Shown: positions 17,041 through 40,664, numbered from the stretch's first letter. The stretch is DNA of 64,000 nt from a virus (IMGVR_UViG_3300020446_001812:32001-96000); one strand, 5' to 3'. Notes: a model not told the origin generated them from the letters alone. Numbers and translations: made by a program.

Positions 17041-18453
17041 ATGAAAAAAGAATTACCATCAAAAACCTTTTGTTTACTTCCTTGGGTGCATCTTAGCACA
17101 AGACCAGATGGAAGTATGCGTGTATGTTGTACAGCAAATGCAAGTTCTGTAGGGCCGACTAATGACAAAGAACATGGTGGTCAAGTTGGTATTTTAAAGA
17201 CAGAAGACGGAAAGCCTAATAATCTCAATGTTAGCGATTTTGAAACTGCCTGGAACAGTACCTACATGAAAAACGTAAGAATGCAAATGCTTAACGGTGA
17301 ACAACCTCCTAGTTGTATAAAATGTTACAAGGAAGAGGCTGCAGGTCATAATTCGAAACGTATGTGGGAAACTGAATACTGGAGACAAAGAGTTGATCTT
17401 GACCAAATAATTGCAAACACAGCAGAAGATGGCAGTGTGCCTCCTAATCTTGCATACATTGATTTAAGATTCGGTACTAAATGTCAACTAGCGTGTGTAA
17501 TGTGTTCGCCGCATGATAGTTCAGGTTGGATAAAAGATTGGAAAGCTGTATTTCCTGCTGTAGAAAATGCAAGTTTAAAAGAAACTATGCAGTGGAAAGA
17601 CAAAGGTAGTTACAATGGAAGCAGTTACAATTGGCACAAACAAAATCCTACATTTTGGAAACAGTTTTATGAACAAATGCCAAGTATGCAACAAATTTAT
17701 TTTGCAGGTGGTGAAAGTTTAATAATTGAAGAACATTATGAAATATTAGAACATGCTATCAAAATGGGTTATGCAAAAGATCTTGAACTTAGATATAACA
17801 GTAATGGAGTAGAATGGCGTGATGATCTATTTGATCTGTGGAAGCAATTCAAACTAGTACGTTTCCATTATTCTATTGATAGTATAGAAAAAATGAATGA
17901 TTATATAAGATATCCAAGTGATTGGACTAGACAAAGTCAAGTCTTTCATATACTAGATAATTATACATCTAATAATGTAGAAGTAACTGTGGCTTGTGCT
18001 GTACAAGCATTAAACATTTATTACATACCTGATTTAATAAAATGGAAATTAAATCAAGGTTTTAAAAAAATTAACATGTGGCCGTTTGGGGCAGGAGGCG
18101 TAAATTATCACTTTGTGTATCATCCGCCGCATTTAAATGTAAAGGTTTTACCTAAATGGTTTAAAGAAGAATGTCGTAAAAAGTATGAAGAATTTTATCC
18201 TTGGTGGGAGGCTAATTGGGAAAAAGGAGTACCTAGTTGGCACAAAGGAAAAGTTGATTATAATAAATGGCGGAGTGCTAGTTATGGTATAAGTAGGCTG
18301 GAAGGTATGTTAAAATTTATGGAAAGCGAAGATTGGAGCATACGTTTGCCTGAAATGAAAGAGTTTTTAGATTTGTGTGACAAACAAAGGGGCGTCACAT
18401 TTTCTGAAACTTTTCCAGAAATGAAGGATATATTTAATGTTTGCAAAAATTAA
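17041..18453 (+). CDS. Radical SAM protein with N-terminal Twitch/SPASM domain
   Basis: CQLACVMC, AGGE, YNSNG; N-terminal FCLLPW...RVCC...SCIKCY. Confidence 0.9.
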   Translation: MKKELPSKTFCLLPWVHLSTRPDGSMRVCCTANASSVGPTNDKEHGGQVGILKTEDGKPNNLNVSDFETAWNSTYMKNVRMQMLNGEQPPSCIKCYKEEAAGHNSKRMWETEYWRQRVDLDQIIANTAEDGSVPPNLAYIDLRFGTKCQLACVMCSPHDSSGWIKDWKAVFPAVENASLKETMQWKDKGSYNGSSYNWHKQNPTFWKQFYEQMPSMQQIYFAGGESLIIEEHYEILEHAIKMGYAKDLELRYNSNGVEWRDDLFDLWKQFKLVRFHYSIDSIEKMNDYIRYPSDWTRQSQVFHILDNYTSNNVEVTVACAVQALNIYYIPDLIKWKLNQGFKKINMWPFGAGGVNYHFVYHPPHLNVKVLPKWFKEECRKKYEEFYPWWEANWEKGVPSWHKGKVDYNKWRSASYGISRLEGMLKFMESEDWSIRLPEMKEFLDLCDKQRGVTFSETFPEMKDIFNVCKN

Positions 18454-19306
18454 TAGAATAAATGATGTTGAACCATATAAAGTGTTAGAGTATGAAAATT
18501 ACATGCCAAATCTTAAAGATCAAAATGTAATTCGAAATATAGCAGAAAATTTTCAAAAAGCAATAGCACATGATATAATGTTTGACGAAGATGATTTACA
18601 ATGGCTATATGGCTTTGCATATAGTAGATGTCATACAGTGAGGCATAATGATAACGGAACAGTTTTCATAAGCGGAAATTTACAAACTATATACAAGAAG
18701 TTCAAAGATAAAATTGACAATATTATACCTGGTGCTGAAAACTCACCAGTCGTAGGTGGAAACTTTTTTATTACTCCTAGTCAATACGGTTTACATAATG
18801 ATAGTACAAGAGAAAAAGATTGGCAAGATACTTTAAAAAATACTCCTTTAGATAGTGATCGGAGACGTTTTGTTCCTTGGAGAAATGTAATTATTCCTAT
18901 ATATACATGTCTGCCAGGAGTTGAAAGCCATGGCGTATTTTTTGATCAGCGTCACATAGATTTTGCCCATGTTTATCATCATGGTAGAAAACCAGATCAA
19001 AAAGTTGCTACTACATATCCATTAGTTGATGATCATAAGGATATTGATTTTCATTTATTAGATGGAACAAAGCAAGATAGAGAAAAAAATTTATTACCAT
19101 ATAATGAAAATCACTTCGATCGTTACTTATATTATACGCCTAAAAGGAGACTTACTGGGCTAACACCAGAACTAACATGCAAATGGGAAGTAGGTAAACC
19201 TATAGTGTTTGATGCTGTTCAACTACATGCAACAAATAAAGGATTAAAGGATAGACAATGGAATACAAAAATGGGACTGTTGTTGACTTTCCTTAGAGAA
19301 ATGTAA
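18437..19306 (+). CDS. 2OG-Fe(II) oxygenase-like (DSBH) protein
   Basis: LHND (HxD) with distal FDAVQLH. Paralog of 25306-26001. Confidence 0.6.
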   Translation: MFAKINRINDVEPYKVLEYENYMPNLKDQNVIRNIAENFQKAIAHDIMFDEDDLQWLYGFAYSRCHTVRHNDNGTVFISGNLQTIYKKFKDKIDNIIPGAENSPVVGGNFFITPSQYGLHNDSTREKDWQDTLKNTPLDSDRRRFVPWRNVIIPIYTCLPGVESHGVFFDQRHIDFAHVYHHGRKPDQKVATTYPLVDDHKDIDFHLLDGTKQDREKNLLPYNENHFDRYLYYTPKRRLTGLTPELTCKWEVGKPIVFDAVQLHATNKGLKDRQWNTKMGLLLTFLREM

Positions 19307-19974
19307 TGAAAAAACTTGCGGTATTTGGTTGTAGTTGGTCATATGGTGTTCCTGGTGTAGGTGAAAAACGTAATAGATTATATGACTGCTGGCCTATAAG
19401 ATTTGCCTTGCAAAATAAGGATTATGAGGTGTATAACTTTGCTAGAGGTGGTACGTGTGTAAATTGGAGTATTGCAAGATTATTACAATTTTTACAAACA
19501 CCTTTATCAAAAGATTGTAAAATTGTTTTTCAAGTTACACAACCATATAGATTTACTTCTAATGTAGATGTTTGTACACAAGGTAATTACAATTTTTTAC
19601 AATACGAAAATTATTTTGTAGATAGAGGTACAGATCCTATTACGCATATGCCTGGAAATATAGCACTTAGAAAATCCGTAGAAGCAAAACTTTATAGAAG
19701 TATGATAAAACATTATCCTGATACATATAGTTTTATTGAGCATGAAGCACAAATTGCTTACCTAAAAAATATTTGTGATTTTGTTTATAGGCATAATTCT
19801 ATAAATTATAAAATTTTACCAAATTTGCAAAACGAGCATACAAAAATATTTAATGTAAGAGAAAAACTTACTAAGGTAAAATGGAAAGAATATGTTGCTG
19901 ATGCTGGTGATCATTTTGGTCCTGATGGATTAGAATGGATAGCAAACATAGTCAAGGAAAAACTTAATGACTAA
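19306..19974 (+). CDS. SGNH/GDSL-like hydrolase or acyltransferase
   Basis: FGCSWSYG, NFARGG, C-terminal DAGDHFG. Confidence 0.6.
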   Translation: MKKLAVFGCSWSYGVPGVGEKRNRLYDCWPIRFALQNKDYEVYNFARGGTCVNWSIARLLQFLQTPLSKDCKIVFQVTQPYRFTSNVDVCTQGNYNFLQYENYFVDRGTDPITHMPGNIALRKSVEAKLYRSMIKHYPDTYSFIEHEAQIAYLKNICDFVYRHNSINYKILPNLQNEHTKIFNVREKLTKVKWKEYVADAGDHFGPDGLEWIANIVKEKLND

Positions 19975-21148
19975 TACACTTTGTCCTGCACCGTGGGAAC
20001 ACCATTGTGTTAACACTAATGGTCGTAATAGGCTATGTTGTAATGCTGTGACAAGTGCATCTAAGTTTTTAGATGGGTTCGAAGAATATTGGAATGGAGA
20101 AGAATTACAAAAAGTCAGACAACAAATGATTGCTGGAGAGCGTCCAGACGCTTGTATAAGTTGTTGGAACAAAGAAGATGCAGGCATAAAAAGTTTACGT
20201 CAAGGAATGATAGAAGGTTTAAAAAATAGAGAAGGAGAATGGGAAAAATTTACAAATGATTTAAATTATGTTCATAAATATCCATTATCTTTGGATTTGA
20301 AGTTAGGAAACTATTGTAATTTATCGTGTCGAATGTGTAGTAGTTATAGTAGCAGTACATATGCATTAGAATTTAAAAAAATCCTTAAGGAAACAGGAAT
20401 AGACCTTGGTATAAATGATTATGAAAAGTATAATGTACAATCTAAATGGTATAACGAACCTAAATTTGTAGATACAATTAAAAAAATGATAAATGATGGA
20501 TTACGACATCTAAAATTTACAGGAGGCGAACCATTAATGGTACCATCTGTAAAAAAATTATTAAATTATTGTATTGAACAGAATAAAGCAAAAAATATAG
20601 AACTTGTACTGATAACTAATGGCACACTACTAAATCAAGAGTGGATAGATATTTTTGCACATTTCAAAAATATTTCAATAATTTTTAGTATTGACGGCAC
20701 TGAGGATACATTTGAATTTATAAGACATCCTGCCAAATGGATGGTTATAAAAGAAAAATTAAATTTATTAGATAAGATACAAGATGATAAATTTTTTATA
20801 TGTATTTCCTTCACATATCAAATATATAATATACTTCAAATTAGAAATATGATAGAATTAATTAGAGAGCATAAAATTAGCATAAGTCCTACAATTTTAG
20901 ATACACCTAATTATTTAGATGTAAGTTATGCACCTGATGCTTTGAAGAATGTTGCTATCACAATGATTGATAATATTAATCCATTAAATAATACGGAAAA
21001 GATATTTCTACGGGACTGCAAAAATGCATTAGGTAGAAATATTTTTGATAAAGATAAAAGTAAAAAAATGATAGAGGTTACATTGTTGAAAGACAAGTAC
21101 AAAAATCAAAACTTTAGTGACACAGAGATAAGCAAATATTATGATTAA
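19967..21148 (+). CDS. Radical SAM protein with N-terminal Twitch/SPASM domain
   Basis: CNLSCRMC, TGGEP, ITNG; N-terminal LCPAPW...RLCC...ACISCW. Confidence 0.9.
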   Translation: MTNTLCPAPWEHHCVNTNGRNRLCCNAVTSASKFLDGFEEYWNGEELQKVRQQMIAGERPDACISCWNKEDAGIKSLRQGMIEGLKNREGEWEKFTNDLNYVHKYPLSLDLKLGNYCNLSCRMCSSYSSSTYALEFKKILKETGIDLGINDYEKYNVQSKWYNEPKFVDTIKKMINDGLRHLKFTGGEPLMVPSVKKLLNYCIEQNKAKNIELVLITNGTLLNQEWIDIFAHFKNISIIFSIDGTEDTFEFIRHPAKWMVIKEKLNLLDKIQDDKFFICISFTYQIYNILQIRNMIELIREHKISISPTILDTPNYLDVSYAPDALKNVAITMIDNINPLNNTEKIFLRDCKNALGRNIFDKDKSKKMIEVTLLKDKYKNQNFSDTEISKYYD

Positions 21149-22292
21149 ATGTTGGGCAACAGAAAATAGTGTGCAAATTGATCCACAAGGTTTTGTCAGG
21201 CCTTGCTGTAAGTTTGAAGGAAATTTTGGCAAATTTGAAAACTACGATAGCATAGATGCTATACTGAATGGTAAAGATTATACTTTACTTCGTAAACGGC
21301 ATTCATTAGGAAATATGACAAAAGCATGCTGGAGATGTAAAGAAGCAGAAGATAGGGGTTATAGGAGTAGACGCCAGGCATATGAAACTAGATATAGCGA
21401 AAATGATTTTCAATTAGACATAAGTCCTGGATTATATTGTAACCTGAAATGTAGAATGTGTGGCCCTATTAACAGCACAGGTTGGTTTAGTGATAACGAT
21501 AAGTTATATGATTTAGGCATTCATGGCATGCATAGTAGTAAATATAACGTTTATAACATGCCTCAGTATGATGTAGATAAGATAGTAAAGTTTATTGAAT
21601 CCAACACAAAAAATATTGATATAGAGTTGAAAGGTGGAGAGCCTTTAATGTTGCCAGCAACAAAACATTTACTCCAGACATTATCAAAATGGGGAGATAG
21701 AATCCAAATTAATATGATTACAAATGGAACATATACTCCCGATTGGCTGCCGAACATATTGGAAAAATTTAGAATGGTAACTATAGGTATTAGTGCTGAC
21801 GGTGTAGGCGAAGTTTATAATTATATAAGAGGTGATGAAGTAAAAAATACGTGGAAAGTATTTCAAAAAAATATATCTTGGTATAAAAAATTAAAATGTA
21901 AGATAAGATTTAATTTTACTTTGCAGAATACAAATATCCATCATTTATATAAATTTGCAAATGAAGTAGGAGCAGAGAATGTACATGTTATAAATTTAGT
22001 AAATCCTAAATTTAATTCAATTAAAATTATTCCTAAACAAGCACGTGCCTATATATTAGATCAAGTAGAACCTTGGATAGATATCTTAGGTAAACATCAC
22101 CTTTATTATCAAAAAAAAGATGCACTTATTATTAAAAAAGAATTACTTAGAGACGAAGAAGTAGATTTAAAATTATATAATGAATATATTACTTACAACG
22201 CCCATTTAGATAAATTGAGATCACAAAATTTATTAGAAGTTGTTCCGCATTTAATTACAACAGAAGGTAGAAAATTGTATGAGTCAATCTAA
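21141..22292 (+). CDS. Radical SAM protein with N-terminal Twitch/SPASM domain
   Basis: CNLKCRMC, GGEP, ITNG; N-terminal KCW...RPCC...ACWRC. Confidence 0.9.
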   Translation: MIKCWATENSVQIDPQGFVRPCCKFEGNFGKFENYDSIDAILNGKDYTLLRKRHSLGNMTKACWRCKEAEDRGYRSRRQAYETRYSENDFQLDISPGLYCNLKCRMCGPINSTGWFSDNDKLYDLGIHGMHSSKYNVYNMPQYDVDKIVKFIESNTKNIDIELKGGEPLMLPATKHLLQTLSKWGDRIQINMITNGTYTPDWLPNILEKFRMVTIGISADGVGEVYNYIRGDEVKNTWKVFQKNISWYKKLKCKIRFNFTLQNTNIHHLYKFANEVGAENVHVINLVNPKFNSIKIIPKQARAYILDQVEPWIDILGKHHLYYQKKDALIIKKELLRDEEVDLKLYNEYITYNAHLDKLRSQNLLEVVPHLITTEGRKLYESI

Positions 22293-23436
22293 AACTTTTT
22301 GTATATTACCATGGATGCATCTTGCTACAAATGCAAGCGGAAATCTGCGTGTTTGTTGTAATAGCACACCTGGCGAAAATTTTATTATGAACAACGATAA
22401 ACCTTTCAAGATTCAAAAAGATGATTTAGAAGTTGCTTGGAATAGTCCTACATATAAAAAAATTAGATCTGAGTTGTTAAATGATATACGACCTAAAATG
22501 TGTACAAGATGTTTTAGGGAAGAAGATTCAGGTATTAAAAGTGCTAGACAAGGATGGAATGAAAAATGGAAAGAGGATATTGAATATATTATTAATGCAC
22601 CTTTTAATATTAAGTATGTAGACATACGCTTAGGAAATTTGTGTAATTTGAAATGTAGAATGTGTAATCCTTACGCAAGTAATCAATGGGTAAAAGAATG
22701 GAACTTAATAGAAGACGCTTTAAGTCCGTCGGAATATAATAGATTAAAAAGTATGGACTGGCCTGAGAACAAAAAAACATGGCAAAATTTGTTTAGTCTT
22801 GCAAATACAGTAGAAGAAATATATTTGACAGGCGGCGAGCCTACTATAATAAAAGAGCAACATAAATTATTAGATTACTTAATAAAAAATGGACAAAGTA
22901 AAAATATTAAATTAAAATATAACACAAATCTTACTAATGTTCCTAAACACTTGCTAGATAAATGGTTGAAGTTTAAAAGAGTGCAATTAAATTGCAGTAT
23001 AGATGCCACAGGTGAACTAGATAGATATATTAGATATCCTAGTAATTGGAATAAAATTGTTGAAAATTTTGAAACAGTAAGGAAGTTACCTAATGTTGGA
23101 ATAGAAATACATTGTACAGTACAGATGTACAACATACTTAGACTGCAAAATTTAATTGAATGGGCAACTCCATATAATCATAAAATTTATTTCAACATAT
23201 TAAATCATCCTGAGTATTTGAATATTAGATGCTTACCTCAGGATTTAAAGGCACAAGTTCAAAGTACATTAAATAATTATATAGAATTACCTAAAGTAAA
23301 AGGAATAATAAATTATATGTTTGCAGAAGATTGGAGCAATAAATTACCAAAATTTAAGCAATATACTGAGGAGTTAGATAAAAGCAGGAACGAAGATGTA
23401 TATAAATTACTTCCAGAATTAAAGGAGATATTATGA
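22279..23436 (+). CDS. Radical SAM protein with N-terminal Twitch/SPASM domain
   Basis: CNLKCRMC, TGGEP; N-terminal FCILPW...RVCC...MCTRCF. Confidence 0.9.
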   Translation: MSQSKTFCILPWMHLATNASGNLRVCCNSTPGENFIMNNDKPFKIQKDDLEVAWNSPTYKKIRSELLNDIRPKMCTRCFREEDSGIKSARQGWNEKWKEDIEYIINAPFNIKYVDIRLGNLCNLKCRMCNPYASNQWVKEWNLIEDALSPSEYNRLKSMDWPENKKTWQNLFSLANTVEEIYLTGGEPTIIKEQHKLLDYLIKNGQSKNIKLKYNTNLTNVPKHLLDKWLKFKRVQLNCSIDATGELDRYIRYPSNWNKIVENFETVRKLPNVGIEIHCTVQMYNILRLQNLIEWATPYNHKIYFNILNHPEYLNIRCLPQDLKAQVQSTLNNYIELPKVKGIINYMFAEDWSNKLPKFKQYTEELDKSRNEDVYKLLPELKEIL

Positions 23437-24164: not shown

Positions 24165-24166
24165 CG

Positions 24167-24195
24167 TTGACAAAAAAAGTGTTGTGTGTTATAAT
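24167..24195 (+). promoter_or_regulatory. Perfect sigma70 consensus promoter TTGACA-17-TATAAT
   Basis: TTGACA 24167-24172 and TATAAT 24190-24195. The ATG at 24201 follows almost immediately, suggesting a leaderless transcript. Confidence 0.85.
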
Positions 24196-24200
24196 TATAT

Positions 24201-25328
24201 ATGAATGAAGATTTAAAATGGAGTAACTATGACTTTACCAAAATCCCGTTTGAGGACATTGTTAGTGTCGGCCAGCGGACACTCTTATATAGAGACCTGT
24301 TTACTGTTAGCTGGCTCCTCGGAAGATTCTGTAACTACAGATGTAGCTACTGCTGGCCCTACGCAAGAAGCGACAGAAAAGATCATAGACCAACAGAACT
24401 CTGTCTTAAAACAATAGATAGTATAAAGGAGCAAGCACGTGGAAATGGCTTTAATAGTTTTCATTTTTCTCTTAGCGGCGGCGAGCCTACCTTTCACCCT
24501 GGATACTTGGACATACTCAACTATCTCGCTGATGATGTTAGCAACACTAATTACACTAGTGTTCATATGACTTCTAATTGTTCAAGACCTATGAAATGGT
24601 TTGAACAATATGTAGAAGTTGCTAAACCTTTTCACAGGGCTAGTATTACAGCAAGTCTGCATACAGAGCATGTAAATACAAAAGATAAGATGCAAGACTT
24701 TGCAGACAAACTTATTTTTTGTCAAGAGCATGATATACAAATTACAATTAATCAAGTTATGGTTCCGGAATGGTTTGAAAGAGATTGGGAAAACGCCCTT
24801 TTCTTTCACGAACAAGGAATCAACGTTACTCTTAAGCCGCAATCAGATCCTACTGCAAGTCGTGTTGTCGATGGTTATAAAAAAGAAGATTTAGAAAAAT
24901 TATGGAATGGCATGCCTCAACGTGCATATACTGAAAGTAAACGTAAATGGGCAGAAAGACCTAAAGCAAAATGGTTAAGTTGGAAAGATTTCAACACTGA
25001 AGAATCTGTACCGCCACATTTTCAAGTTGAATTTGAAGATAGCAAAGGCAAAAAATGGTATATGGATCAGGCAGAAAGATTTAATGCTTTTAATTTTAAC
25101 AAGTTCAAGGGCTGGAGATGTAATGCAGGATTCAGCGGAATAATTATAAGAGAACCTGACGGTAGTATTAAAAGAAGCTATTCTTGTCATGATGATCCTT
25201 TAGGAAACATTGAAACAGGATTTAAACTTTTTAATGCGCCTCAAACCTGCATAACAGATAGTTGTGTTAGTTCGGCTGACAGTAAAATACCAAAAAGGAA
25301 AACTAATGCGTCAACAACAGCAGATTAA
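24201..25328 (+). CDS. Radical SAM protein with C-terminal SPASM-like domain
   Basis: CNYRCSYC, SGGEPTFHP; C-terminal WRCNAG...PDG...SC...TC...C. Confidence 0.9.
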   Translation: MNEDLKWSNYDFTKIPFEDIVSVGQRTLLYRDLFTVSWLLGRFCNYRCSYCWPYARSDRKDHRPTELCLKTIDSIKEQARGNGFNSFHFSLSGGEPTFHPGYLDILNYLADDVSNTNYTSVHMTSNCSRPMKWFEQYVEVAKPFHRASITASLHTEHVNTKDKMQDFADKLIFCQEHDIQITINQVMVPEWFERDWENALFFHEQGINVTLKPQSDPTASRVVDGYKKEDLEKLWNGMPQRAYTESKRKWAERPKAKWLSWKDFNTEESVPPHFQVEFEDSKGKKWYMDQAERFNAFNFNKFKGWRCNAGFSGIIIREPDGSIKRSYSCHDDPLGNIETGFKLFNAPQTCITDSCVSSADSKIPKRKTNASTTAD

Positions 25329-26001: not shown

Positions 26002-26003
26002 TT

Positions 26004-26471
26004 ATGGAATTAGTAATTAGTGAATTACATTTGAAAAAGCCACCTTGGACTTTGAGAAATAAATTAATTGCAGAACATTTAGAACCAAATAAATCTGTAA
26101 TTGATATAGGAGGTGGAGCCGGAGATATTTTGAAATATTACAAGCCTAGTAAATATTGTAATATTGATGGGATGCCAGTTGATAATGTTGATATTATTTT
26201 AGATTTAGATTCAGATTATCATTTGGAATTAGAGGAAGGTTGGGATTATTCTATCAACAGTGGCATCTTAGAATGGGTAAAAAGGGTAGACTATTTCTTA
26301 GACAAACAAAAAAATTTAGCAAACAATTATATTTTTACATGGCATCACGATCCATTATGGGGAAGGATGAGTTTTAGTCGAATAGAAAGTATAATTAATG
26401 AAAATTATATTATAAATGATACCATACCTTGGGGCGGTAAGCAAAAAATATATAAATGTAAAGCAAAATGA
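26004..26471 (+). CDS. Class I SAM-dependent methyltransferase
   Basis: VIDIGGGAG motif I; SGILEWV. Confidence 0.75.
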   Translation: MELVISELHLKKPPWTLRNKLIAEHLEPNKSVIDIGGGAGDILKYYKPSKYCNIDGMPVDNVDIILDLDSDYHLELEEGWDYSINSGILEWVKRVDYFLDKQKNLANNYIFTWHHDPLWGRMSFSRIESIINENYIINDTIPWGGKQKIYKCKAK

Positions 26472-27490
26472 AGAAATGTGTCTATCCTAATAATATTTTA
26501 ATTGTAGGTAACGATGGTTACACTGATTCCTGTCCATTAGAAACTGCTAATTTACGTTTAGAAAATATTAATCAAGGAATACAAAAATCCTGGCAAAGTC
26601 CAAAGTATGCTGATTTTAGAAATAATTTAGAAGAGTATCTTAATAATAAAGATAAAATATGTTGGCAGTGCAACATGCTAGAAAAAAATGGTGGTATTAG
26701 TTTAAGAACAGAAACACCATTAATCACAGATTCTCCAGAACTGAAGGCTATCCAGTTTAAGTTAAGTAATCGTTGTCAACTTGTTTGTGCTCATTGCGGA
26801 CCTAATTTAAGTAGTAGTTGGGGTAAATTTGTTGGCCAAAAAAATTATATTAAGCAGTTTGAAATCAAGGATCATGTATTAGATGAACTTAAAACATTAG
26901 TCCCACAAATGAACTTTATAAGATTTACAGGTGGAGAACCATGGATGGATCCAATGCATTGGAAAATACTTAAATCCTTAAAAGGTATAGATAAAAAAGA
27001 CTGTGAATTACATTATATAACCAACGGACTATCAACTATAAGACCTGAACTATGGGAGGGTTGGAAGAAAATACAAATTATGTTAAGCGTTGATGGGTTT
27101 GGTGAAAGCTATGAATGGTTCAGAAGACAGGCATTGTGGAAAGATCTTTTACAAGCATATGAAAATTTATCTAAGCATCCAAATGTTAAATTAAAAATTA
27201 ATTTTTCACTTACACCATGGACAGTAGATAGTCTAGCATCTGCGAAAGAATATTTTCAAAATCCATTTTTAGTTGTTCCGATTATGTCACCTTGGCATTG
27301 TAGTTTAGGAAGTTTGACCGAAGACGAATATAATAATTTGGGCTTGACAAAGTACGTAGAATATAGTAAAATAATAGGAAGTAATCCAAAAGGTGCAAAA
27401 TATTTAAAGACCTGGGCGTTAAGTTGGGACAATAGATGGAATACACCAGGATTAGCAGAAAAGGTACATCCATGGTTGAACAAAATATAA
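26468..27490 (+). CDS. Radical SAM protein with N-terminal Twitch/SPASM domain
   Basis: CQLVCAHC, TGGEP, ITNG, SVDG; N-terminal KCVYP...DSC...ICWQC. Confidence 0.9.
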   Translation: MKKCVYPNNILIVGNDGYTDSCPLETANLRLENINQGIQKSWQSPKYADFRNNLEEYLNNKDKICWQCNMLEKNGGISLRTETPLITDSPELKAIQFKLSNRCQLVCAHCGPNLSSSWGKFVGQKNYIKQFEIKDHVLDELKTLVPQMNFIRFTGGEPWMDPMHWKILKSLKGIDKKDCELHYITNGLSTIRPELWEGWKKIQIMLSVDGFGESYEWFRRQALWKDLLQAYENLSKHPNVKLKINFSLTPWTVDSLASAKEYFQNPFLVVPIMSPWHCSLGSLTEDEYNNLGLTKYVEYSKIIGSNPKGAKYLKTWALSWDNRWNTPGLAEKVHPWLNKI

Positions 27491-29629: not shown

Positions 29630-31252
29630 ATGACGCAAGTTATTATTTTTACTGGGACATCCCGAACTGATCCCAAAAATAAAATTTATTCTCAACAAGA
29701 CATGACAGCAAGTATCTTGATGCGACCATTAGGTGCGTATCAGATTGCTTCTATATTAAGAGCAAATGGATATACAGTACAGGTTATAGATCGCTTCCAT
29801 TGGTTAATTAGAGAAAAAGGTCGTGAATTTTACCGGGAAGTTATCCGGCCTCATATAGGAGCTGATACATTATGGATAGGATGGAGCAATACCTTTTGGG
29901 AAGGTGAACCAAGAGCTGGGCCTGAAGATTTAAAAAACATAGGATATTTGGCAGAGGCAGCACGTTCTGTAGGCATGCGAGAAGAAGGGTTGCAGGCAAT
30001 GCAAAACTATAGGCAGGAGATAAATCCAAATATTAAATTTGTAGTTGGTGGCGCAAAAACTTGGAGATGGAGTCAACAGGATTTTAAGTTTTTTGATTAT
30101 TATGTAGAAGGCTATGCTGATGTAATGGCTTTAGAATTGACCAATTGGTTAGCTGGCAAAGGAGATAAGCCTGCTTGTAGACCTAACGATGACGGTTCTG
30201 AAATACTAGATTACGATAAACGTGGTGATAAATTTGACTTTGTAAATCATGTTCATAGATGGCATCCTACAGATTATTTAAATCAAGGAACTTCTTTACC
30301 TATAGAAATTGCAAGAGGTTGTATATTTAGATGTGCTTATTGTAGCTTTCCGTTAAACAATAAAAAGAAATTAGATTTTATTAGAGAACCAGAGCAACTG
30401 AAAGAAGAATTTGTAAGAAACTACGAAGAGTATGGAGTGACAAAATATTACTATGGAGATGATACTCATAATGATAGTGTAGAAAAACTAGAATTTTTGT
30501 ATGATAAAGTATACTCTCAGCTACCTTTCAAAATAGAATTCGCAACATATCTAAGATTAGATTTGCTTGCCGCACATCCACAAACTATACCATTGCTGTT
30601 AGAAAGTGGATTAGTAGGAACATTTTTTGGTATAGAAAGTTTCAACAAAGATGCTAATAAAACCGTAGGCAAAGGAGCTACAGAGGAAAAAATTTATGAA
30701 AATTTATACAAATGTAAAGATGTTTGGAAAGATAAGGTCCACATTCACGCTGGTCTAATAACAGGTTTGCCTAATGATAGCGAAGATACTATACTAGATT
30801 GGGGAATGAGAGCTACTAGTAAAGAATCACCTATTGACTATGCTATGATTACTGAATTACATTTATTTCCTAAATGGGGTAAAGACACTCATTGGCTTAA
30901 TAAAATGGAATTAAATCCTGCTTTTTATGGTTATGAGTTTGAAGAAGATGGCATTCAATATACAAATAATGTAGGATTAACAAAAAGCAGAGCGGCTCAA
31001 CTAGCAGTTCATTTATTAAAAAATATGGATGAGCAAAAAAAGGGCAAAGATTGGTCTATGAATAAGAGTCAAATGCAAGGATGGTATAGTTTTGCACATG
31101 CCGCAAATTGTGGTATGACCACCCATGAATACTTAAATAAGGGTCGATTAGATATTTTAAACCGTAGAGAAAGTATTTTAAATAATTATTATGCAAAATT
31201 AAAAAACGGTGCTAAAATAGAACAAAACAGAAAGGATAGTTATGATGGCTGA
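29630..31252 (+). CDS. Cobalamin-binding (class B) radical SAM protein
   Basis: N-terminal PLGAYQIASILR..G..VQVID and VVGGA; EIARGCIFRCAYC; GIES; GLITGLP. Confidence 0.85.
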   Translation: MTQVIIFTGTSRTDPKNKIYSQQDMTASILMRPLGAYQIASILRANGYTVQVIDRFHWLIREKGREFYREVIRPHIGADTLWIGWSNTFWEGEPRAGPEDLKNIGYLAEAARSVGMREEGLQAMQNYRQEINPNIKFVVGGAKTWRWSQQDFKFFDYYVEGYADVMALELTNWLAGKGDKPACRPNDDGSEILDYDKRGDKFDFVNHVHRWHPTDYLNQGTSLPIEIARGCIFRCAYCSFPLNNKKKLDFIREPEQLKEEFVRNYEEYGVTKYYYGDDTHNDSVEKLEFLYDKVYSQLPFKIEFATYLRLDLLAAHPQTIPLLLESGLVGTFFGIESFNKDANKTVGKGATEEKIYENLYKCKDVWKDKVHIHAGLITGLPNDSEDTILDWGMRATSKESPIDYAMITELHLFPKWGKDTHWLNKMELNPAFYGYEFEEDGIQYTNNVGLTKSRAAQLAVHLLKNMDEQKKGKDWSMNKSQMQGWYSFAHAANCGMTTHEYLNKGRLDILNRRESILNNYYAKLKNGAKIEQNRKDSYDG

Positions 31253-31616: not shown

Positions 31617-33065
31617 GTGATGATTCTTTTGTTCACAGATGTTAGTCATACTCCTGGTATAGGCAAATATGCTGGAACATATAAAGTTGCGACAGAATTA
31701 CGCAAAAATAAGTTTGATACCCAAGTTATTGATTGTTTTAAATACTTGGGTATTAAAAGGTTGAAAAAGATTCTTGATAAGTTCTTAACAAATAAAATTA
31801 TTTTGATTGGTATTAGTAATACCTTAATGTATAATCAAAAATTTATGTGGGGCATCACTGACAAAGAATTCGAGGAATTTGTAACTTATGCAAAAAAAAT
31901 AAATCCTAACATAAAATTTATGGTAGGAGGAGCAGGCGTTACACAATATTCTAATTGGCCATATATAGATTATTCTATAATAGGTAAAGGCGACTCAGCC
32001 ATAGTTGCTTTAGCTAAACATATTTATTCTGGCACACCATTGATTTATAGACAAAATGCTTTTACTAAATTAGTAAACGGCGATGACTATTTTTATACCC
32101 AAGATGAATTTGCAAAAAGTTATATTAGGTTTGAAGATAATGATGTTGTTTTAGATGGTGAAGCATTGCCAATAGAAATAGCAAGAGGCTGTATTTTTAA
32201 ATGTGCATTTTGCTTTTTTGACTTAATAGGTAAACGTAAAGGAGACTGGACAAAAACAGAGGATACTATATATAATGAAATGATGTATAATTATAAAAAG
32301 TTTGGCACTACACAATATATGGTAAGTGACGAATTGGTAAATGAAAGTGTTGAAAAAGTAAAAATGTTAGCAAGAATAGCAAACAAATTACCTTTCAAGC
32401 TAGAATATACTGCTTATGCTAGATTAGATTTAATTGTGCGATACCCTGAAATGATTCCATTGTTGCAAGAAAGCGGAGCAGTCGGACTTTCCTTTGGAGT
32501 TGAAACATTTAATCATTCTGCAGGCAAAGCAGTAGGCAAAGGTGTTGACCCTAATGTTTTAAAGGACACATTAGTTGAATGTAAAAGACAATGGAAAAAT
32601 AATGTTGTCATAAGTGCAAATTTTATAATAGGTTTGCCAGGCGAGTCAAAAAAGGATATTGAGCAGACAATTGAATATTTGTTAACTGTTGATTGCCCTA
32701 TTGATGCATTTGAATTAAATTTATTAACAATTAAGGATGACAGTGATGGTAGGCACGGAAATAAAATGGGCAATGATCCAAAAAAATATGGATATACTTT
32801 AGAAGATAAACAATGGAAAAATAATCAAATGAATAGAGTTGAAGCCAATAATTTTTTAAATACTATAAAGAATGATCCTTTAGTAAAAAATAAGAGAAAA
32901 TTTATGAGTGCTACATACATAGGAAGAATAATGAGTTTAGGTTATACTATAGAAGATATTTTTGATTTAATGAACAACAAAACTTTTATAGAAACAATAC
33001 AACAGGTAAATTATAAAACTTACCAAAAGAAAGAAGAATATTTTAAAAGGATTATGTCTCTATGA
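31617..33065 (+). CDS. Cobalamin-binding (class B) radical SAM protein (paralog of 29630-31252)
   Basis: GTYKVATELR..FDTQVID, MVGGA, EIARGCIFKCAFC, GVET, FIIGLPGE. Confidence 0.85.
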   Translation: MMILLFTDVSHTPGIGKYAGTYKVATELRKNKFDTQVIDCFKYLGIKRLKKILDKFLTNKIILIGISNTLMYNQKFMWGITDKEFEEFVTYAKKINPNIKFMVGGAGVTQYSNWPYIDYSIIGKGDSAIVALAKHIYSGTPLIYRQNAFTKLVNGDDYFYTQDEFAKSYIRFEDNDVVLDGEALPIEIARGCIFKCAFCFFDLIGKRKGDWTKTEDTIYNEMMYNYKKFGTTQYMVSDELVNESVEKVKMLARIANKLPFKLEYTAYARLDLIVRYPEMIPLLQESGAVGLSFGVETFNHSAGKAVGKGVDPNVLKDTLVECKRQWKNNVVISANFIIGLPGESKKDIEQTIEYLLTVDCPIDAFELNLLTIKDDSDGRHGNKMGNDPKKYGYTLEDKQWKNNQMNRVEANNFLNTIKNDPLVKNKRKFMSATYIGRIMSLGYTIEDIFDLMNNKTFIETIQQVNYKTYQKKEEYFKRIMSL

Positions 33066-33694: not shown

Positions 33695-34145
33695 TATATT
33701 AATATACGTTTTTATATTTTTTGCATGGACATTTATATTATATTGGATGCACAGAATTTGTCATTATGTGCCATACCTGAAGCAAATACATTGGCATCAT
33801 CATAAATTTGTTACAGGACAACAACCAACATGGATGTGGCAAAATCTTTTTCTTTATAGTGATGATTGGATGAGTACATTAGATATTGTTGTTACAGAAA
33901 TAATTCCTACACTTATATTTTGTTATTTTACAGGTCATTGGTGGGTAGCTGTTTGGTATTACGTCTGGACAGCATTTATTCAAGAATGGTTTGAACACAA
34001 TCCTAATTTTAACCTATGGCCGTTTAGTGCAGGAAAATATCATTTGAATCATCACAAATATTGGCGATATAATTTTTCTTTATTTTTTCCTATTTGGGAT
34101 ATAGTATTCGGCACTCATAAACCAATTACCACAAACAATAGTTAG
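33687..34145 (+). CDS. Sterol desaturase / fatty acid hydroxylase family membrane protein
   Basis: YWMHRICH, IHWHHH, EWFEH, YHLNHH..YNFSLFFPIWDIVFGT. Confidence 0.85.
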   Translation: MVDILIYVFIFFAWTFILYWMHRICHYVPYLKQIHWHHHKFVTGQQPTWMWQNLFLYSDDWMSTLDIVVTEIIPTLIFCYFTGHWWVAVWYYVWTAFIQEWFEHNPNFNLWPFSAGKYHLNHHKYWRYNFSLFFPIWDIVFGTHKPITTNNS

Positions 34146-34157
34146 ATATATATTATT

Positions 34158-35967: not shown

Positions 35968-36480
35968 TTAGGCAGTAGTAGATTTTGGTTTTCTACCAGC
36001 CTTCTTAGGTGCTTTATCCTTTAGGCTTGGGTCAACAACTTGTGCAATTATTTTTGCCCATGGTACAACGTTCCATGTACGTTCATGTGCATAGTATAAG
36101 AACATGTTTATTGCTGTTGCTAGACCTGCAAAAATTGTTGCGTTACCCCAACTACCTGTAACAAGGAATGGGATAATAAAATTGTTTGATGTAATAACAA
36201 TTCTCCAGGTAATCATCTTAGCGGCAGATCTACCTTCTTGATCATCAAATGCTCTTGCAGGATTTTCTTTCCTCCATATTTGGAAATAATTCCAGGCTCT
36301 TTCGTGTAACCAATACAATGTACTGTTTATTAGTGTCGCCCAGCCTGCAATTTTTAAGCCCACTAAAAGACTTCCCGTAGCAAGAAAGCCATTCACTATG
36401 TGAGATATAGTAAGCAACACTCTCCAGGAAACCATTTTAGCAATAGTTCTAGGGTGTCTTTCATTAAACTTAGTAAACAT
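35968..36480 (-). CDS. Membrane protein with two tandem DUF2061-like repeats
   Basis: RTIAKMVSWR...TGS...LYWLHERAWN repeated as RSAAKMITWR...TGS...LYYAHERTWN; AGGAG RBS. Confidence 0.75.
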   Translation of the reverse strand: MFTKFNERHPRTIAKMVSWRVLLTISHIVNGFLATGSLLVGLKIAGWATLINSTLYWLHERAWNYFQIWRKENPARAFDDQEGRSAAKMITWRIVITSNNFIIPFLVTGSWGNATIFAGLATAINMFLYYAHERTWNVVPWAKIIAQVVDPSLKDKAPKKAGRKPKSTTA

Positions 36481-36491
36481 TTTTTCTCCTT

Positions 36492-36499
36492 TATTTATT
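36492..36499 (-). promoter_or_regulatory. Late promoter AATAAATA
   Basis: Upstream of the RBS of 35968-36480. Confidence 0.45.
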
Positions 36500-36502
36500 A
36501 AG

Positions 36503-36517
36503 TGCGTATATAACTAT
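36503..36517 (-). repeat. 15-bp inverted repeat, left copy (ATAGTTATATACGCA on - strand)
   Basis: Exact reverse complement of 37721-37735. Confidence 0.85.
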
Positions 36518-37704
36518 TTATTCCATTTTAGACTAGCTGGATTTATTTTTGGTACAATTGGACCTATTTTATAATTGACAGAATACACTTGTAAACCGTC
36601 TGCAAAGCCATGTTCTGTGTTAACAAACCTACTTGCGTTTGTCTTTACATAATTAATACCTTCTTGCCAAATAGTATGGTGTTTTGTACCTTTATGGCCT
36701 TCAATATACCAATGATCAAATTCACTGTACCAATCTAGCGTTGCTTTATCAGCTTGATACCATGAATTATTCCAAGAACTATACAGTAATGGCCTAAGCT
36801 CTCGTTCATGCATAGTTCTAAATAGATCAGCTGTCATATTTTTTCCATACCAAAAAGGCTGTTTTTCTGGTGTCAATTCTAACCAGTGTTTTATTGTGTA
36901 TGCTTGTTTGCATAATATATCTACACTTTCAGGCGCCCAATAAAAATACTCTACTGTGCTGTTATCATAATCTCGTATATGGTTTTCTATAGTTATGATA
37001 TTAGTCGATCTATCATTAAATCTAAGATAAAAATCTCCGTTTGAGTGTATGAAAGTCCTAGGTTTTTCAATACCAAGTATCAATCCTATTTTTTTACTTT
37101 TGTCAAATTGTTTTCTAACATCATTAAAATGTATGTAATTAAACCTTGTAACATTTAATGGATTTAGTCCTTCACGCTTATCCATTATCCAACTAGCATC
37201 GCCTTTGGAAAGCCAAGAATCAAATAAGTAATCAGACATATCTAATATTGTAATTTTTGTTTTCGGAGACAGTTTCTGTATTTCTTTTAGTCTTGGTATA
37301 GTTTGTAAATAATGCTCGGCCGCCGCATTTTTAGGATCTTTATTATTAGGGTCTATATCAGTGTAAGATAAATTTGCTTTTTCCATTGTGTTTACAATAA
37401 TTTCATCTATGATCAATCCTTGCCTAATAAAACTATTTGCTATATTTTGACTGTCACTACCTCCACTATAACTTAGTATTAAATAATCATAAGTGTCTCT
37501 TAATTGTTGAGCACGGACATCATATAATTTATCTAATGTTTGAGTAGGCTCAATATGCCAATTGTAGTTTTTAAAAGTATCAGTATTAAAATGCCATTGT
37601 ACATCTTGATTTGTAGATTGAGCAAAAAAACAAGCCTGAATTTTGCTATCAAATTCTATATTGCCAACGGTGTAGTATCCTAATTTTTTGTTAATTTCAT
37701 GCAT
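36514..37704 (-). CDS. PP-loop ATP pyrophosphatase-like protein (paralog of 41012-42208)
   Basis: LSYSGGSDSQ; LGYY..., GIEKPRT, EYFYW. Start placed at the second Met because a GATAAGTA motif at 37713-37720 lies upstream of it. Confidence 0.7.
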   Translation of the reverse strand: MHEINKKLGYYTVGNIEFDSKIQACFFAQSTNQDVQWHFNTDTFKNYNWHIEPTQTLDKLYDVRAQQLRDTYDYLILSYSGGSDSQNIANSFIRQGLIIDEIIVNTMEKANLSYTDIDPNNKDPKNAAAEHYLQTIPRLKEIQKLSPKTKITILDMSDYLFDSWLSKGDASWIMDKREGLNPLNVTRFNYIHFNDVRKQFDKSKKIGLILGIEKPRTFIHSNGDFYLRFNDRSTNIITIENHIRDYDNSTVEYFYWAPESVDILCKQAYTIKHWLELTPEKQPFWYGKNMTADLFRTMHERELRPLLYSSWNNSWYQADKATLDWYSEFDHWYIEGHKGTKHHTIWQEGINYVKTNASRFVNTEHGFADGLQVYSVNYKIGPIVPKINPASLKWNK

Positions 37705-37720
37705 CTCATGAGTACTTATC

Positions 37721-37735
37721 ATAGTTATATACGCA
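37721..37735 (+). repeat. 15-bp inverted repeat, right copy (ATAGTTATATACGCA)
   Basis: Exact reverse complement of 36503-36517; directly followed by GATAAATA. Confidence 0.85.
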
Positions 37736-37743
37736 GATAAATA
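37736..37743 (+). promoter_or_regulatory. Late promoter GATAAATA (divergent from GATAAGTA at 37713-37720, - strand)
   Basis: 6 nt before ATG 37750. Confidence 0.55.
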
Positions 37744-37749
37744 TTACTG

Positions 37750-38679
37750 ATGGAATCCAAAATCCCTATAATTGCAGCACCTATGAATCAAGTTTCCGAT
37801 GCAAATTTAGCTATTGCCTGCCACCGAGCAGGTATAATGCCTAGTATAAGTTTTCTTAACTTTGTAGACAAAGATACCCATACATGTGATTTTGAATCTT
37901 TTTTACGAGATGTTGAATACTTTACATCTTCAACTAATACAAACAAACTTATTATAAGTGTCAGTAGTAAAACCTTACTTAGAAAAGGAATACAAGATCA
38001 AGTTGTCAAATATTTTAACAAAATAAAATTTTCTCATTTAGAAATAATATTAACAGAAAGATTAGAATTTACAAATAAAAAATTAACACAAAACGATAAA
38101 GATCTTTTTGATAGTATAGAAGAAGCATTAAAAAGTTTACCTAAAGTAAAAATTATGTATAAAGCACTTGATGTATATAGTATTATACAAATTGCAAAAT
38201 ATACTGAATTTATAGATTGTTATGTACTTAAATCTAACAAAGGAGCAGGAACAATATCAAATTATACAAGCAATATATATGAAAGTATAAATTTGTTTAA
38301 AACAGAATGTCCTGGAAAAGAAATAATTGCAAGTGGCGGAATATCTACTGCTAAGGAAATAAAAAAATGTATCAAAGCTGGAGCAAAAGCAGTAGCAATA
38401 GGTACTTTGTTTGCTTTTGCAAAAGAAAGTAAAATTTCTAATGAATCAAAAAAAGTTATGATACAAAAAAATAAAAATGATTTAGACATAATTTCTGGTT
38501 ATCAGAATGGAGTTGTCTTTAATAAATTAGAGAAAGATGATAGTAACAACACATTTAGTCTTATAGAAGGCATTAAATCCCCTCACAAGGGTCATTTATT
38601 TGCTGGGCATGGATTAAATAATATAACAAATATTTTGTCAGTGCAAGAGATAGTGGATAAATTATGGCCGAAAAAATGA
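37750..38679 (+). CDS. FMN-dependent TIM-barrel oxidoreductase (nitronate monooxygenase/FabK-like)
   Basis: PIIAAPM..VS...LA.A...AG, IIASGGI, GAKAVAIGTLF...KES. Confidence 0.75.
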   Translation: MESKIPIIAAPMNQVSDANLAIACHRAGIMPSISFLNFVDKDTHTCDFESFLRDVEYFTSSTNTNKLIISVSSKTLLRKGIQDQVVKYFNKIKFSHLEIILTERLEFTNKKLTQNDKDLFDSIEEALKSLPKVKIMYKALDVYSIIQIAKYTEFIDCYVLKSNKGAGTISNYTSNIYESINLFKTECPGKEIIASGGISTAKEIKKCIKAGAKAVAIGTLFAFAKESKISNESKKVMIQKNKNDLDIISGYQNGVVFNKLEKDDSNNTFSLIEGIKSPHKGHLFAGHGLNNITNILSVQEIVDKLWPKK

Positions 38680-40061
38680 AATTTAGCTTAGACAGTTTTT
38701 GTCCTGAAGCATGGAATCAAATAGAAATAGATGCACAAGGTGATTATAAAATTTGCTGTTTAGCAAATTATGATAATGATTTCGGTATGGCTCTTGATAA
38801 AGACGGTAATGTAATGAATGTTAAAACACACACTATACAAGAAGCAATGAATAGTGAAACACATAAACAACATAGAAAAGAAATGAGCCAAAACATAAAG
38901 CCAAAAAGATGTAGGAACTGTTGGGATAGTGAAGAAAGCACAAGAAATCAAGAAGGTTTTGGTTATAAAGATAAATTTAAAAAATATGGCATAAGCAAAA
39001 GACAGCGTGTAATAAGAAATACGAGTAATGTAATTCCTGAGTATACCAAATGGAACGAGGCACATCTAGTTACAAGCGAAGATGGAACCTTGGATGTTGA
39101 AAATGTAAAACATGTAAATTTAGATTTGAGATTTGGAAACTTATGTAATCAAAAATGTATTATGTGTAGTCCGCAACATAGTAATCAATGGTACGATGAT
39201 TGGGTAGCAATAGGATACGGAGCTCCACAATATAATAGAAAAAAAGGAAGATATAAAAAAGGTAAAGCGAAAGAGTTCGAGTTTTTCTATGATGAACATA
39301 ATAGAGTCAAAATGGCTGGAATGGAACCTTGGTGGGAAAGTGAACAATGGTGGACTATGTTTGAGAAACAAGCAATGGACTTAAGGTACATATATTTTAC
39401 AGGAGGCGAACCATTAATTGTTCCACAAATGCAACAATGTTTAGATAGGTTAATAAACAAAGGGTATAGTAAGGACATTCAGCTAAGGTATGATACAAAT
39501 TTATCTGTAATAAACCAAAAGGTTATTGACAAATGGAAAAATTTTAAAGATGTTTTTTTATGTATCAGCGTTGATGATACCGATGAAAGATATAACACAA
39601 TAAGATATCCAGGAAATTTTGAAAGGTTAGAACAAAATATTATTAAATTAAAAGAAAACGGTATAGATATACATTACATAAGCACCTGTGTTGGCATTGC
39701 AAGTCCTTACAGTGTCCAACGTATATATGAGTTTGGAAAAAAATATAACATAGATACAAATTTTAGATTTTTAGAAGGTCCTAATTGGCTTGATATTAGA
39801 AACTATCCTGCAGATGCTAAAAAAGAAATAATTGAAAATTTACGCGATTATTCTACAGATAAAAAATATACTAGATGGGCAAACGCCGAAATAAAATTAT
39901 TAGAAAAATATATGGATCATAGTGAAGAAAAACATCTTAAAGAATTTATTAGAGTCATGGATGTTCTTGACAAACAAAGATCGACAGACTGGAGGAAAGC
40001 GATGCCAGATGTAGTAGATCTTTACAAAACATATTGCCCCGACATATATAAGGAAAAATAA
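38664..40061 (+). CDS. Radical SAM protein with N-terminal Twitch/SPASM domain
   Basis: CNQKCIMC, TGGEP; N-terminal FCPEAW...KICC...RCRNCW. Confidence 0.9.
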   Translation: MAEKMKFSLDSFCPEAWNQIEIDAQGDYKICCLANYDNDFGMALDKDGNVMNVKTHTIQEAMNSETHKQHRKEMSQNIKPKRCRNCWDSEESTRNQEGFGYKDKFKKYGISKRQRVIRNTSNVIPEYTKWNEAHLVTSEDGTLDVENVKHVNLDLRFGNLCNQKCIMCSPQHSNQWYDDWVAIGYGAPQYNRKKGRYKKGKAKEFEFFYDEHNRVKMAGMEPWWESEQWWTMFEKQAMDLRYIYFTGGEPLIVPQMQQCLDRLINKGYSKDIQLRYDTNLSVINQKVIDKWKNFKDVFLCISVDDTDERYNTIRYPGNFERLEQNIIKLKENGIDIHYISTCVGIASPYSVQRIYEFGKKYNIDTNFRFLEGPNWLDIRNYPADAKKEIIENLRDYSTDKKYTRWANAEIKLLEKYMDHSEEKHLKEFIRVMDVLDKQRSTDWRKAMPDVVDLYKTYCPDIYKEK

Positions 40062-40664
40062 ATGCATTATTATAGAATAGGAAAACTTAAAAAAGAAATT
40101 GTGCAAGAAATGCTTGCCGCAGTGTTAGAAAAAAGTGAACCAAGTAAAGGTTATCATTGGATTGAATTTGATGATAATTTAAATTCAATGTGGAATAATA
40201 TTTGGGAGAACAAAAATTTAAAAGTTAGACGCTGGGATAATAAATGGATACAAAAAGCATTTTACAGTCCTGTCGGTAAAGGTTGGAAAATACATAAAGA
40301 TGGAATAGATTGTAAAGTTGCATTGAACATTGCATTACAATCAAACGAATCTGATTGGGTGCGGTGGTATGACGAAGAATTAATAAATGATCTAGCAGAT
40401 ATAAATGTTACAGACGGTGACAAGGGAAAAGGACATAGTAGAAATATACCTATTAATGAGTACGAAGATATTTCTTTTATAGATGAATTAAAAGTTGAAC
40501 AAGGGGAAGTATATCTTGTTAATACAGATGTATTTCATAGTTTCTATTGTGGAGGTCCTAAAGATAGAGTAATTGTGCAAACTAAATTTCAGAATAATCC
40601 AAACTGGAATACTGTATTAGAAAATGTAAAGAAAAGTAATTTTACTCTTCAAGCCCGTGATTAA
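40062..40664 (+). CDS. 2OG-Fe(II) oxygenase-like protein
   Basis: IHKDG (HxD), ALNI, YLVNTDVFH...R.IV. Confidence 0.6.
   Translation: MHYYRIGKLKKEIVQEMLAAVLEKSEPSKGYHWIEFDDNLNSMWNNIWENKNLKVRRWDNKWIQKAFYSPVGKGWKIHKDGIDCKVALNIALQSNESDWVRWYDEELINDLADINVTDGDKGKGHSRNIPINEYEDISFIDELKVEQGEVYLVNTDVFHSFYCGGPKDRVIVQTKFQNNPNWNTVLENVKKSNFTLQARD

Follow-up and report, generated by a model that had tools for sequence, protein, structure and literature searches.

We analysed a 64,000-nucleotide stretch of viral DNA (IMGVR_UViG_3300020446_001812:32001-96000, hereafter the window), which carries an enzyme island where all five open reading frames (ORFs) resembling 2-oxoglutarate (2OG)-Fe(II) oxygenases lie directly downstream of a radical S-adenosylmethionine (rSAM) gene. 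This five-of-five pattern is real in the window. On balance we think it likely that it is composite and that it stems from optional tailoring cassettes carried by a hypervariable island beside fibre genes, of a type already known. It would have three components: two conserved facultative cassettes, g17011-OX1 and (g37750)-g38664-OX5; one conserved cassette that contains g24201, OX2, OX3 and a nitroreductase-like gene in shuffled order; and two neighbourhoods specific to this genome, g22279-OX2 and g31617-OX4, favoured by ∼0.3 rSAM genes per island gene. The genes concerned are the following.

17011/17041-18453 (+): g17011, N-twitch rSAM, upstream partner of OX1; NF033640 418.8 bits; CQLACVMC at residue 158
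18437-19306 (+): OX1 (P0001), model with a double-stranded β-helix (DSBH) fold; H120-x-D122, H264 and K278 invariant
22279-23436 (+): g22279, N-twitch rSAM, before OX2 in this genome only; NF033640 409.5 bits
23433-24164 (+): OX2 (P0002), putative Asp/Arg-hydroxylase-like cupin; H159-x-D161 and H210 invariant
24201-25328 (+): g24201, non-twitch rSAM, anchor of the OX2/OX3 cassette; Pfam Radical_SAM 50.4 bits
25306-26001 (+): OX3, paralog of OX1; H92-x-D94, H207 and K220 invariant
31617-33065 (+): g31617, B12-binding rSAM, before OX4 in this genome only; PF02310 34.4 bits and PF04055 62 bits
33062-33694 (+): OX4 (P0004), DSBH-fold model; H105-x-D107, H156/H158 and K167 invariant
37750-38679 (+): g37750, NMO/IMPDH-like flavin mononucleotide (FMN) oxidoreductase; Pfam NMO 52.6 bits
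38664-40061 (+): g38664, N-twitch rSAM, upstream partner of OX5; NF033640 291.4 bits
40062-40664 (+): OX5 (P0005), probable AspH-like 2OG oxygenase; H78-x-D80, H159 and R169 invariant

The initial annotation of the window had taken the five pairs for a repeated two-gene module. As a description it was accurate: the ORFs lie where it placed them, its 11 rSAM genes are confirmed, and its random-order estimate of ∼0.001 agrees with the values of about 0.0006-0.002 that permutation of gene order returns. Finding five of five oxygenases behind an rSAM gene has P = 0.0006-0.0007 over 41 genes and P = 0.0019 in the rSAM-densest 26-gene core, with about 1.3-1.7 such adjacencies expected; because both the class and the pattern were picked post hoc, these P-values are nominal only. 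The partners overlap or abut, as had been noticed (–17, –4, –23, –4 and 0 nt in the order OX1 to OX5), but nearly all neighbouring island genes do the same, so the spacing is uninformative about the pairs. rSAM genes make up 0.27-0.36 of the island genes, and those not followed by an oxygenase precede a family 2 glycosyltransferase (GT2), a 167-aa ORF, another rSAM gene, a GNAT-like ORF or an S-adenosylmethionine (AdoMet) decarboxylase.

Conservation of the pairs was judged in ∼190 related loci in total. The adjacency in related genomes that the module idea predicts is conserved and enriched for g17011-OX1 and g38664-OX5 and is not found for the OX2, OX3 and OX4 pairs. From the oxygenase side, 105 IMG/VR loci with ±6 kb flanks were mapped to the window genes, rSAM genes being called by BLAST to window genes together with the CxxxCxxC motif. 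Counted as distinct arrangements, they gave:

OX1: rSAM gene directly upstream in 12/18; local rSAM density 0.33; g17011-OX1 kept in 15/24
OX5: rSAM gene directly upstream in 9/18; local rSAM density 0.08; g38664-OX5 kept in 8/14
OX2: rSAM gene directly upstream in 2/17 (2.5 expected); local rSAM density 0.15; g22279-OX2 kept in 0/20
OX3: rSAM gene directly upstream in 3/13 (2.3 expected); local rSAM density 0.18; g24201-OX3 kept in 1/9
OX4: rSAM gene directly upstream in 1/14 (1.1 expected); local rSAM density 0.08; g31617-OX4 kept in 0/18

The rSAM gene upstream of OX1 is a g17011 ortholog in 11 of the 12 arrangements. These orthologs, 67-89% identical to g17011, stand directly before OX1 in most relatives, and the pair is intact despite gene insertions and deletions around it. 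In L007, OX1 has no rSAM gene in its vicinity. Tandem OX1-family copies (56% and 49% identity to OX1) were seen in L095 (∼6001-8000), L096 and L097, in a context free of rSAM genes out to 6 kb. Upstream of OX5, eight of the nine rSAM genes are homologous to g38664, at identities that go as low as 31-36%.

The remaining oxygenases keep other company. OX2 is mostly followed by OX3 and preceded by the nitroreductase-like gene, a small ORF or OX3, while g24201 precedes OX2 by one to three genes in seven types of arrangement (L001, L022, L024, L025, L027, L029 and L031); g24201, the nitroreductase-like gene, OX2 and OX3 are a conserved cassette whose internal order is shuffled. The g24201 protein is 81-86% identical across relatives versus 45-59% for its oxygenase neighbours, and its C-terminal ∼170 residues match no family. 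OX4 is found mostly behind a fatty-acid-desaturase-like gene (directly so in L038, L050, L052, L056 and L065) or an unassigned ∼210-aa gene, and in L039-L048 its context is free of rSAM genes; this pairing of an oxygenase with a di-iron enzyme is commoner in relatives than that of OX4 with an rSAM. The cultured pelagiphage Mosig (L106) has the same enzyme repertoire as the island in a different order: its Asp_Arg_Hydrox gene is divergent from nitroreductase and MoaA-like rSAM genes and is followed by a FA_desaturase gene (arrangement at 4893-6169).

From the rSAM side, a metagenome-contig scan with the g38664 orthogroup alignment gave 80 loci. An oxygenase directly follows the g38664-type rSAM gene in 19-21 of 58 contexts, namely 8-10/15 in the close, 1/18 in the middle and 10/25 in the distant clade, and in the close relatives L114, L117, L120 and L121 OX5 has been lost with all flanking genes kept. 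Given these clade counts and losses, the pairing is frequent and far above chance, yet facultative. Where the g38664 homolog is the sole rSAM gene within ±6 kb (density 0.04-0.13), OX5 is its immediate downstream neighbour in 8 of 13 orthologous arrangements. Partner distances are correlated, with a Mantel r of 0.81 across 17 pairs and of 0.94 when the distant clade is taken alone, which fits co-inheritance of the two sequences. Other combinations occur as well: in L074 a g31617-like rSAM gene is followed by an OX5-like oxygenase. In L133, L144 and L145 the oxygenase behind the g38664-type rSAM (48-50% identity) belongs to the OX1/OX3 family and not to the OX5 family.

A further link in this cassette concerns its first gene. 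g37750 overlaps g38664 by 16 nt in the window, and their homologs are fused into a single 767-775-aa ORF in L122-L125 (e.g. L122:2071-4374 and L124:2050-4377), a Rosetta-stone arrangement suggesting that the FMN oxidoreductase works with the rSAM enzyme. The g37750-g38664 link is at least as strong as that between g38664 and OX5, and no rSAM-oxygenase fusion was seen in the ∼190 loci.

No curated model is reached by OX1-OX5, which have no Pfam match even at E ≤ 10 and no PHROGs match, but the HxD...H iron triad is invariant in the family alignments of all five. Structures were predicted for OX1 and OX4, and these proteins confidently adopt the 2OG-oxygenase DSBH fold in their models. The AlphaFold2 model of OX1 (pLDDT 90.6) matches only 2OG oxygenases in Foldseek, with E down to 9e–6, and VIA aligns 150-190 of its residues with SnoN/SnoK, AlkB and prolyl hydroxylases at Z 10-11; none of its 164 metagenomic homologs has a Pfam domain. 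For the OX4 model (pLDDT 89.2) the best 50 chains in a Foldseek-independent search are all 2OG oxygenases (Z 9.5-12.6), AspH and L-Pro cis-4-hydroxylase among them, and 11% of the members of its nearest Atlas cluster are PF05118. Their closest known counterparts in the superfamily are Asp/Arg β-hydroxylase-like enzymes (PF05118: AspH, L-Pro cis-4-hydroxylase) and sugar-tailoring enzymes such as SnoN/SnoK and EvdO/AviO: OX4 is nearest to ALKBH6, PHD, cis-P4H and AspH (Z ∼12) and OX1 to SnoN/SnoK, AlkB and P4H (Z ∼11), where a Z of 10-12 assigns no substrate.

OX3 is placed through its homology to OX1 (hhalign probability 99.1%, E 5e–19) as a predicted DSBH oxygenase-fold protein. OX5 is a probable AspH-like 2OG oxygenase: a whole-library profile search led to distant relatives, homologous at hhalign 99.7%, which singly give sub-threshold matches to PF05118, PF13759, PF13640, PF05721 (PhyH) and Cupin_2, with 4 of 25 matching PF05118 at E ≥ 8.6e–4. 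Evidence for OX2 is weaker and converging, and points to an Asp/Arg-hydroxylase-like oxygenase; it consists of a tblastn match to the Mosig protein annotated Asp_Arg_Hydrox (E 2e–8), a weak profile match to the L-Pro cis-4-hydroxylase 4p7w (E 0.12) with HxD and H aligned, and weak Cupin_2 matches in 7 of 19 family members. The DSBH fold predicted earlier for the HxD...H proteins is thus borne out by models for OX1 and OX4 and by homology for OX3, and for OX2 and OX5 it is indirectly supported by sequence matches. We also looked 9-17 residues past the distal His for the basic residue that binds the 2OG C5-carboxylate. This is usually Arg, as in OX5 (R169), but unlike in most 2OG oxygenases an invariant Lys takes its place in OX1 (K278), OX3 (K220) and OX4 (K167), and OX2 has no clear counterpart; the paralogy of OX1 and OX3 and the Lys of their KMGL/KLGL motifs had been recognised from the start and are confirmed.

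The five ORFs fall into four families without detectable mutual homology by hhalign (probability <1% for OX1-OX2 and OX1-OX5, and 3% for OX2-OX5), and their sequences define four apparently virus-only oxygenase families without an existing model. Nothing meaningful came up when PDB sequences were searched with OX1, OX4 and OX5 family profiles. Among 50,697 cultured-phage records tblastn found no match for OX1, OX4 or OX5 and Mosig alone for OX2. Scanning viral contigs for the OX3-only pattern and genome contigs for the OX5 family likewise gave nothing, while the OX1-family scan of genome contigs returned two contigs of metagenome-assembled genomes, both of them phage-like DNA. We found no further members of the OX1-OX5 families within the window. 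Two candidates for extra oxygenases, g7569 (HKD) and g4620 (HND), match no OX profile and were rejected, the latter being fibre-like in composition. A sixth 2OG-Fe(II)-oxygenase-like gene is present at 61588-62187 (–) (PF13640 24.2 bits, E 4.5e–6), with an R.S.SFN-type C-terminus; it lies outside the island among replication genes and has no rSAM neighbour.

All 11 rSAM genes of the island, assigned with Pfam and NCBIfam, encode CxxxCxxC. The NF033640 (N_Twi_rSAM) cut-off of 170 bits is passed by g9729, g17011, g19967, g21141, g22279 and g38664 (212-419 bits), in which the SPASM/twitch match is N-terminal, ahead of the CxxxCxxC core; g26468, with 160 bits, is slightly below it, and g24201 and g13823 lack the N-terminal twitch domain. 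To our knowledge no reaction has been assigned to NF033640, and a full-text literature search gave no paper. g31617 is of class B, its PF02310 score exceeding the cut-off of 32.1, while the B12-domain score of g29630 is just 20.6 bits. These two B12-type paralogs (34% identical) flank a speD/speH-like AdoMet decarboxylase gene, an arrangement not seen in L035, the one close relative spanning the region, which is without a second B12-type rSAM.

Partner relationships across the pairs do not run in parallel. The paralogous rSAMs g17011, g22279 and g38664 (23-29% identity) precede mutually non-homologous oxygenases, and the paralogs OX1 and OX3 follow an N-twitch and a non-twitch rSAM, respectively: g17011 is a full-length NF033640 member, the match of g24201 is confined to the core of that profile, and the two have no BLAST match to each other. 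Since partner paralogy is incongruent, the pairs do not stem from duplication of a two-gene unit, and the proposal that the module was duplicated and exchanged as such does not hold.

The most general form of that proposal, an obligatory module in which no oxygenase does without its upstream rSAM enzyme, the partners act one after the other on a shared substrate, and duplication and exchange involve the whole unit, would account for the full set of pairs in the window (P about 0.0006-0.002), for two pairs kept over deep divergence, and for the occasional other rSAM-oxygenase pairs in relatives (L074; L133, L144, L145). It is largely refuted by the non-conserved adjacency and we consider it improbable: OX2, OX3 and OX4 show no enrichment downstream of rSAM genes (2/17, 3/13 and 1/14), OX1 (L007, L095-L097) and OX4 (L039-L048) occur in rSAM-free settings, about two-thirds of g38664-type contexts have no oxygenase, and the incongruent paralogy just described speaks against it too. 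What stands of the repeated module is two facultative pairs; it does not hold as a rule covering all five. Another early suggestion, that each pair comprises an anaerobic (rSAM) and an aerobic (2OG/O2) isoenzyme of one reaction, has cellular precedents in HemN/HemF, BchE/AcsF and anSME/FGE; kept side by side, the two would serve at any oxygen level. The idea predicts either/or occurrence, which nothing in the data supports, and we find it scarcely credible, as no pair is linked by sequence to one reaction, paralogous rSAMs are partnered with unrelated oxygenases, the island also has O2-dependent di-iron desaturase/hydroxylase genes, and contig names, taken alone, suggest oxic marine and lake surface samples.

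A further alternative is that the pattern is a pure by-product of gene density and synteny and that no adjacency is functionally meaningful. An rSAM density of 0.27-0.36, genes that all overlap or abut and a finding made post hoc would fit it, and unrelated adjacent pairs are conserved as well or better. We nevertheless regard it as unlikely, because OX5 stands behind the sole local rSAM gene in 8 of 13 arrangements at a density of 0.04-0.13, g17011-OX1 stays together amid surrounding gene gain and loss, and partner distances in the g38664-OX5 pair give Mantel r of 0.81-0.94. Tight co-divergence would also suit a physical complex in the conserved pairs, where an oxygenase-fold subunit presents the substrate to the rSAM or regulates it and is not an independent catalyst. 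Start/stop overlap or abutment fits translational coupling, and the fusion of the FMN oxidoreductase to the rSAM betrays a tendency of the cassette to physical coupling, but catalysis is favoured by the invariant HxD...H and the invariant, putatively 2OG-binding basic residue of OX1 and OX5, no rSAM-oxygenase fusion is found in the ∼190 loci, and the pair is facultative; this reading appears to us quite unlikely.

The composite reading that we prefer has its own costs, and several observations weigh against it. Given the low window P of ∼0.001, treating three adjacencies as coincidence costs roughly P = 0.02-0.05. The related loci are not phylogenetically independent. Some pairs without an oxygenase are fully kept (g11056-g11711 in 6/6, g19967-g21141 in 5/5), and since the 57-63% retention of the two conserved pairs is no higher than this, they could be plain synteny. 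Finally, partner distances are correlated for g38664 and OX5 (r 0.81), but such co-divergence is also expected from shared ancestry alone.

If facultative tailoring cassettes are nevertheless the right description, the conserved pairs would carry out consecutive tailoring on one sugar-, lipid- or protein-borne substrate: H-atom-abstraction chemistry would fall to the rSAM enzyme and a subsequent O2-dependent hydroxylation or oxidation to the oxygenase; either step could be dropped independently, which would yield product diversity. Such stepwise tailoring is proposed because of the other contents of the island, which include two GT2 glycosyltransferases, a cytidylyltransferase, an AdoMet decarboxylase, PP-loop enzymes, two fatty-acid-desaturase-like genes, one fatty-acid-hydroxylase-like gene and a methyltransferase-like gene. 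A Cys-His-x-Ser repeat-ending virion protein was considered as rSAM substrate, and none of the frames of the whole window encodes a peptide of this kind.

The island spans ∼5.5-42 kb of the window. Its boundary genes and the rSAM genes that do not precede an oxygenase are the following.

1-1110: tail-collar/gp10-like (Collar/Gp10_C) gene
9729-11063 (+): g9729, N-twitch rSAM; next gene a GT2 glycosyltransferase, no oxygenase
13823-14890 (+): g13823, rSAM; next gene an unassigned 167-aa ORF
19967-22292 (+): g19967 and g21141, tandem N-twitch rSAMs; another rSAM gene after each
26468-27490 (+): g26468, N-twitch-like rSAM; next gene a GNAT-like ORF
29630-31252 (+): g29630, B12-type rSAM, paralog of g31617; next gene an AdoMet decarboxylase
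42205-43860 (–): Mtd_N fibre gene

The source of the window is a 106-kb IMG/VR virus contig with a CheckV completeness of 30%. Also encoded in the window are an exonuclease of RNase H type and a family-B DNA polymerase (PolB), which has its best matches (46-51% identity) in the jumbo myophages Phosso, Atu_ph07 and GAP32; we place the source phage among uncultured marine jumbo myophages of the T4 superfamily. Fibre genes on both flanks and this PolB affinity place the island between fibre genes of a jumbo phage. Gene order is strongly variable across L001-L105, so that both features of a fibre-linked hypervariable island are found here. Megablast of the island DNA gave no useful match.

Two small genes of the island have relatives elsewhere. 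A 78-aa ORF at 12657-12893 (+), between g11711 and the nitroreductase-like gene, has a 72-74-aa counterpart at the same position in L001, L003, L004, L088, L098, L101 and L103; the family is strongly conserved, with the core ATNNNI.QFNKQAHHNSQNWY, and its product could be a small subunit, a carrier or a peptide substrate. A 222-aa ORF at 19306-19974 (+) begins with a GCSWSYG motif that we read as GDSL/SGNH-hydrolase-like, and its distant homologs (25-32% identity) lie beside OX1, OX3 and rSAM genes in L003, L004, L010, L024, L088, L090 and L093.

Islands of this kind are known from other phages. Pelagimyophages and cyanomyophages have a host recognition cluster (HRC) that is hypervariable and contains rSAM cassettes (Zaragoza-Solas et al. 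2020, PMC7029224), and a T4-like environmental viral genome (EVG) carries 12 rSAM genes (Nishimura et al. 2017, PMC5332604). Like the HRC, the present island is big, non-syntenic and set among tail-fibre genes, and its relatives have gained or lost individual cassettes; unlike the HRC phages, this phage lies outside the Kyanoviridae, its PolB being nearest to those of Phosso, Atu_ph07 and GAP32. The rSAM-oxygenase pairing is absent from the HRC and EVG descriptions in PMC7029224 and PMC5332604. In cyanomyophage Syn9, tandem dioxygenase arrays lie beside tail-collar-type proteins, their proposed substrates (Iyer et al. 2010, PMC2938197). Several unrelated 2OG-oxygenase families cluster in one phage region there as here, but the oxygenases of our island are interleaved with rSAM genes and do not form tandem arrays. 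The polyoxin/nikkomycin nucleoside pathway offers a chemical parallel, in which the rSAM PolH is followed by the Fe/2OG oxygenase PolD, that is, radical C-H chemistry and then O2-dependent oxidation on a sugar-like scaffold. 9blq, which we take to be the PolD structure, is a fold match of OX4; the sequence relationship of PolH and PolD to the window proteins is at superfamily level only.

Islands rich in rSAM genes beside tail fibres are common in large aquatic phages, and our analysis names two recurrent cassettes in them, g17011-OX1 and FMN oxidoreductase-g38664-OX5, which are expressible because they are small and recurrent. Which enzymes work together can hardly be read from the order of genes within a single island. 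It is possible, and we put it forward tentatively, that g17011-OX1 and g37750-g38664-OX5 are dedicated couples, each of an N-twitch rSAM and a Lys- or Arg-type 2OG oxygenase from a virus-only family, performing a fixed radical-then-oxygenative edit of a glycan, lipid or virion protein, units that large phages swap to diversify their surface structure. Should the conserved pairs prove to be true couples, they would provide a practical entry to the function of N_Twi_rSAM (NF033640).

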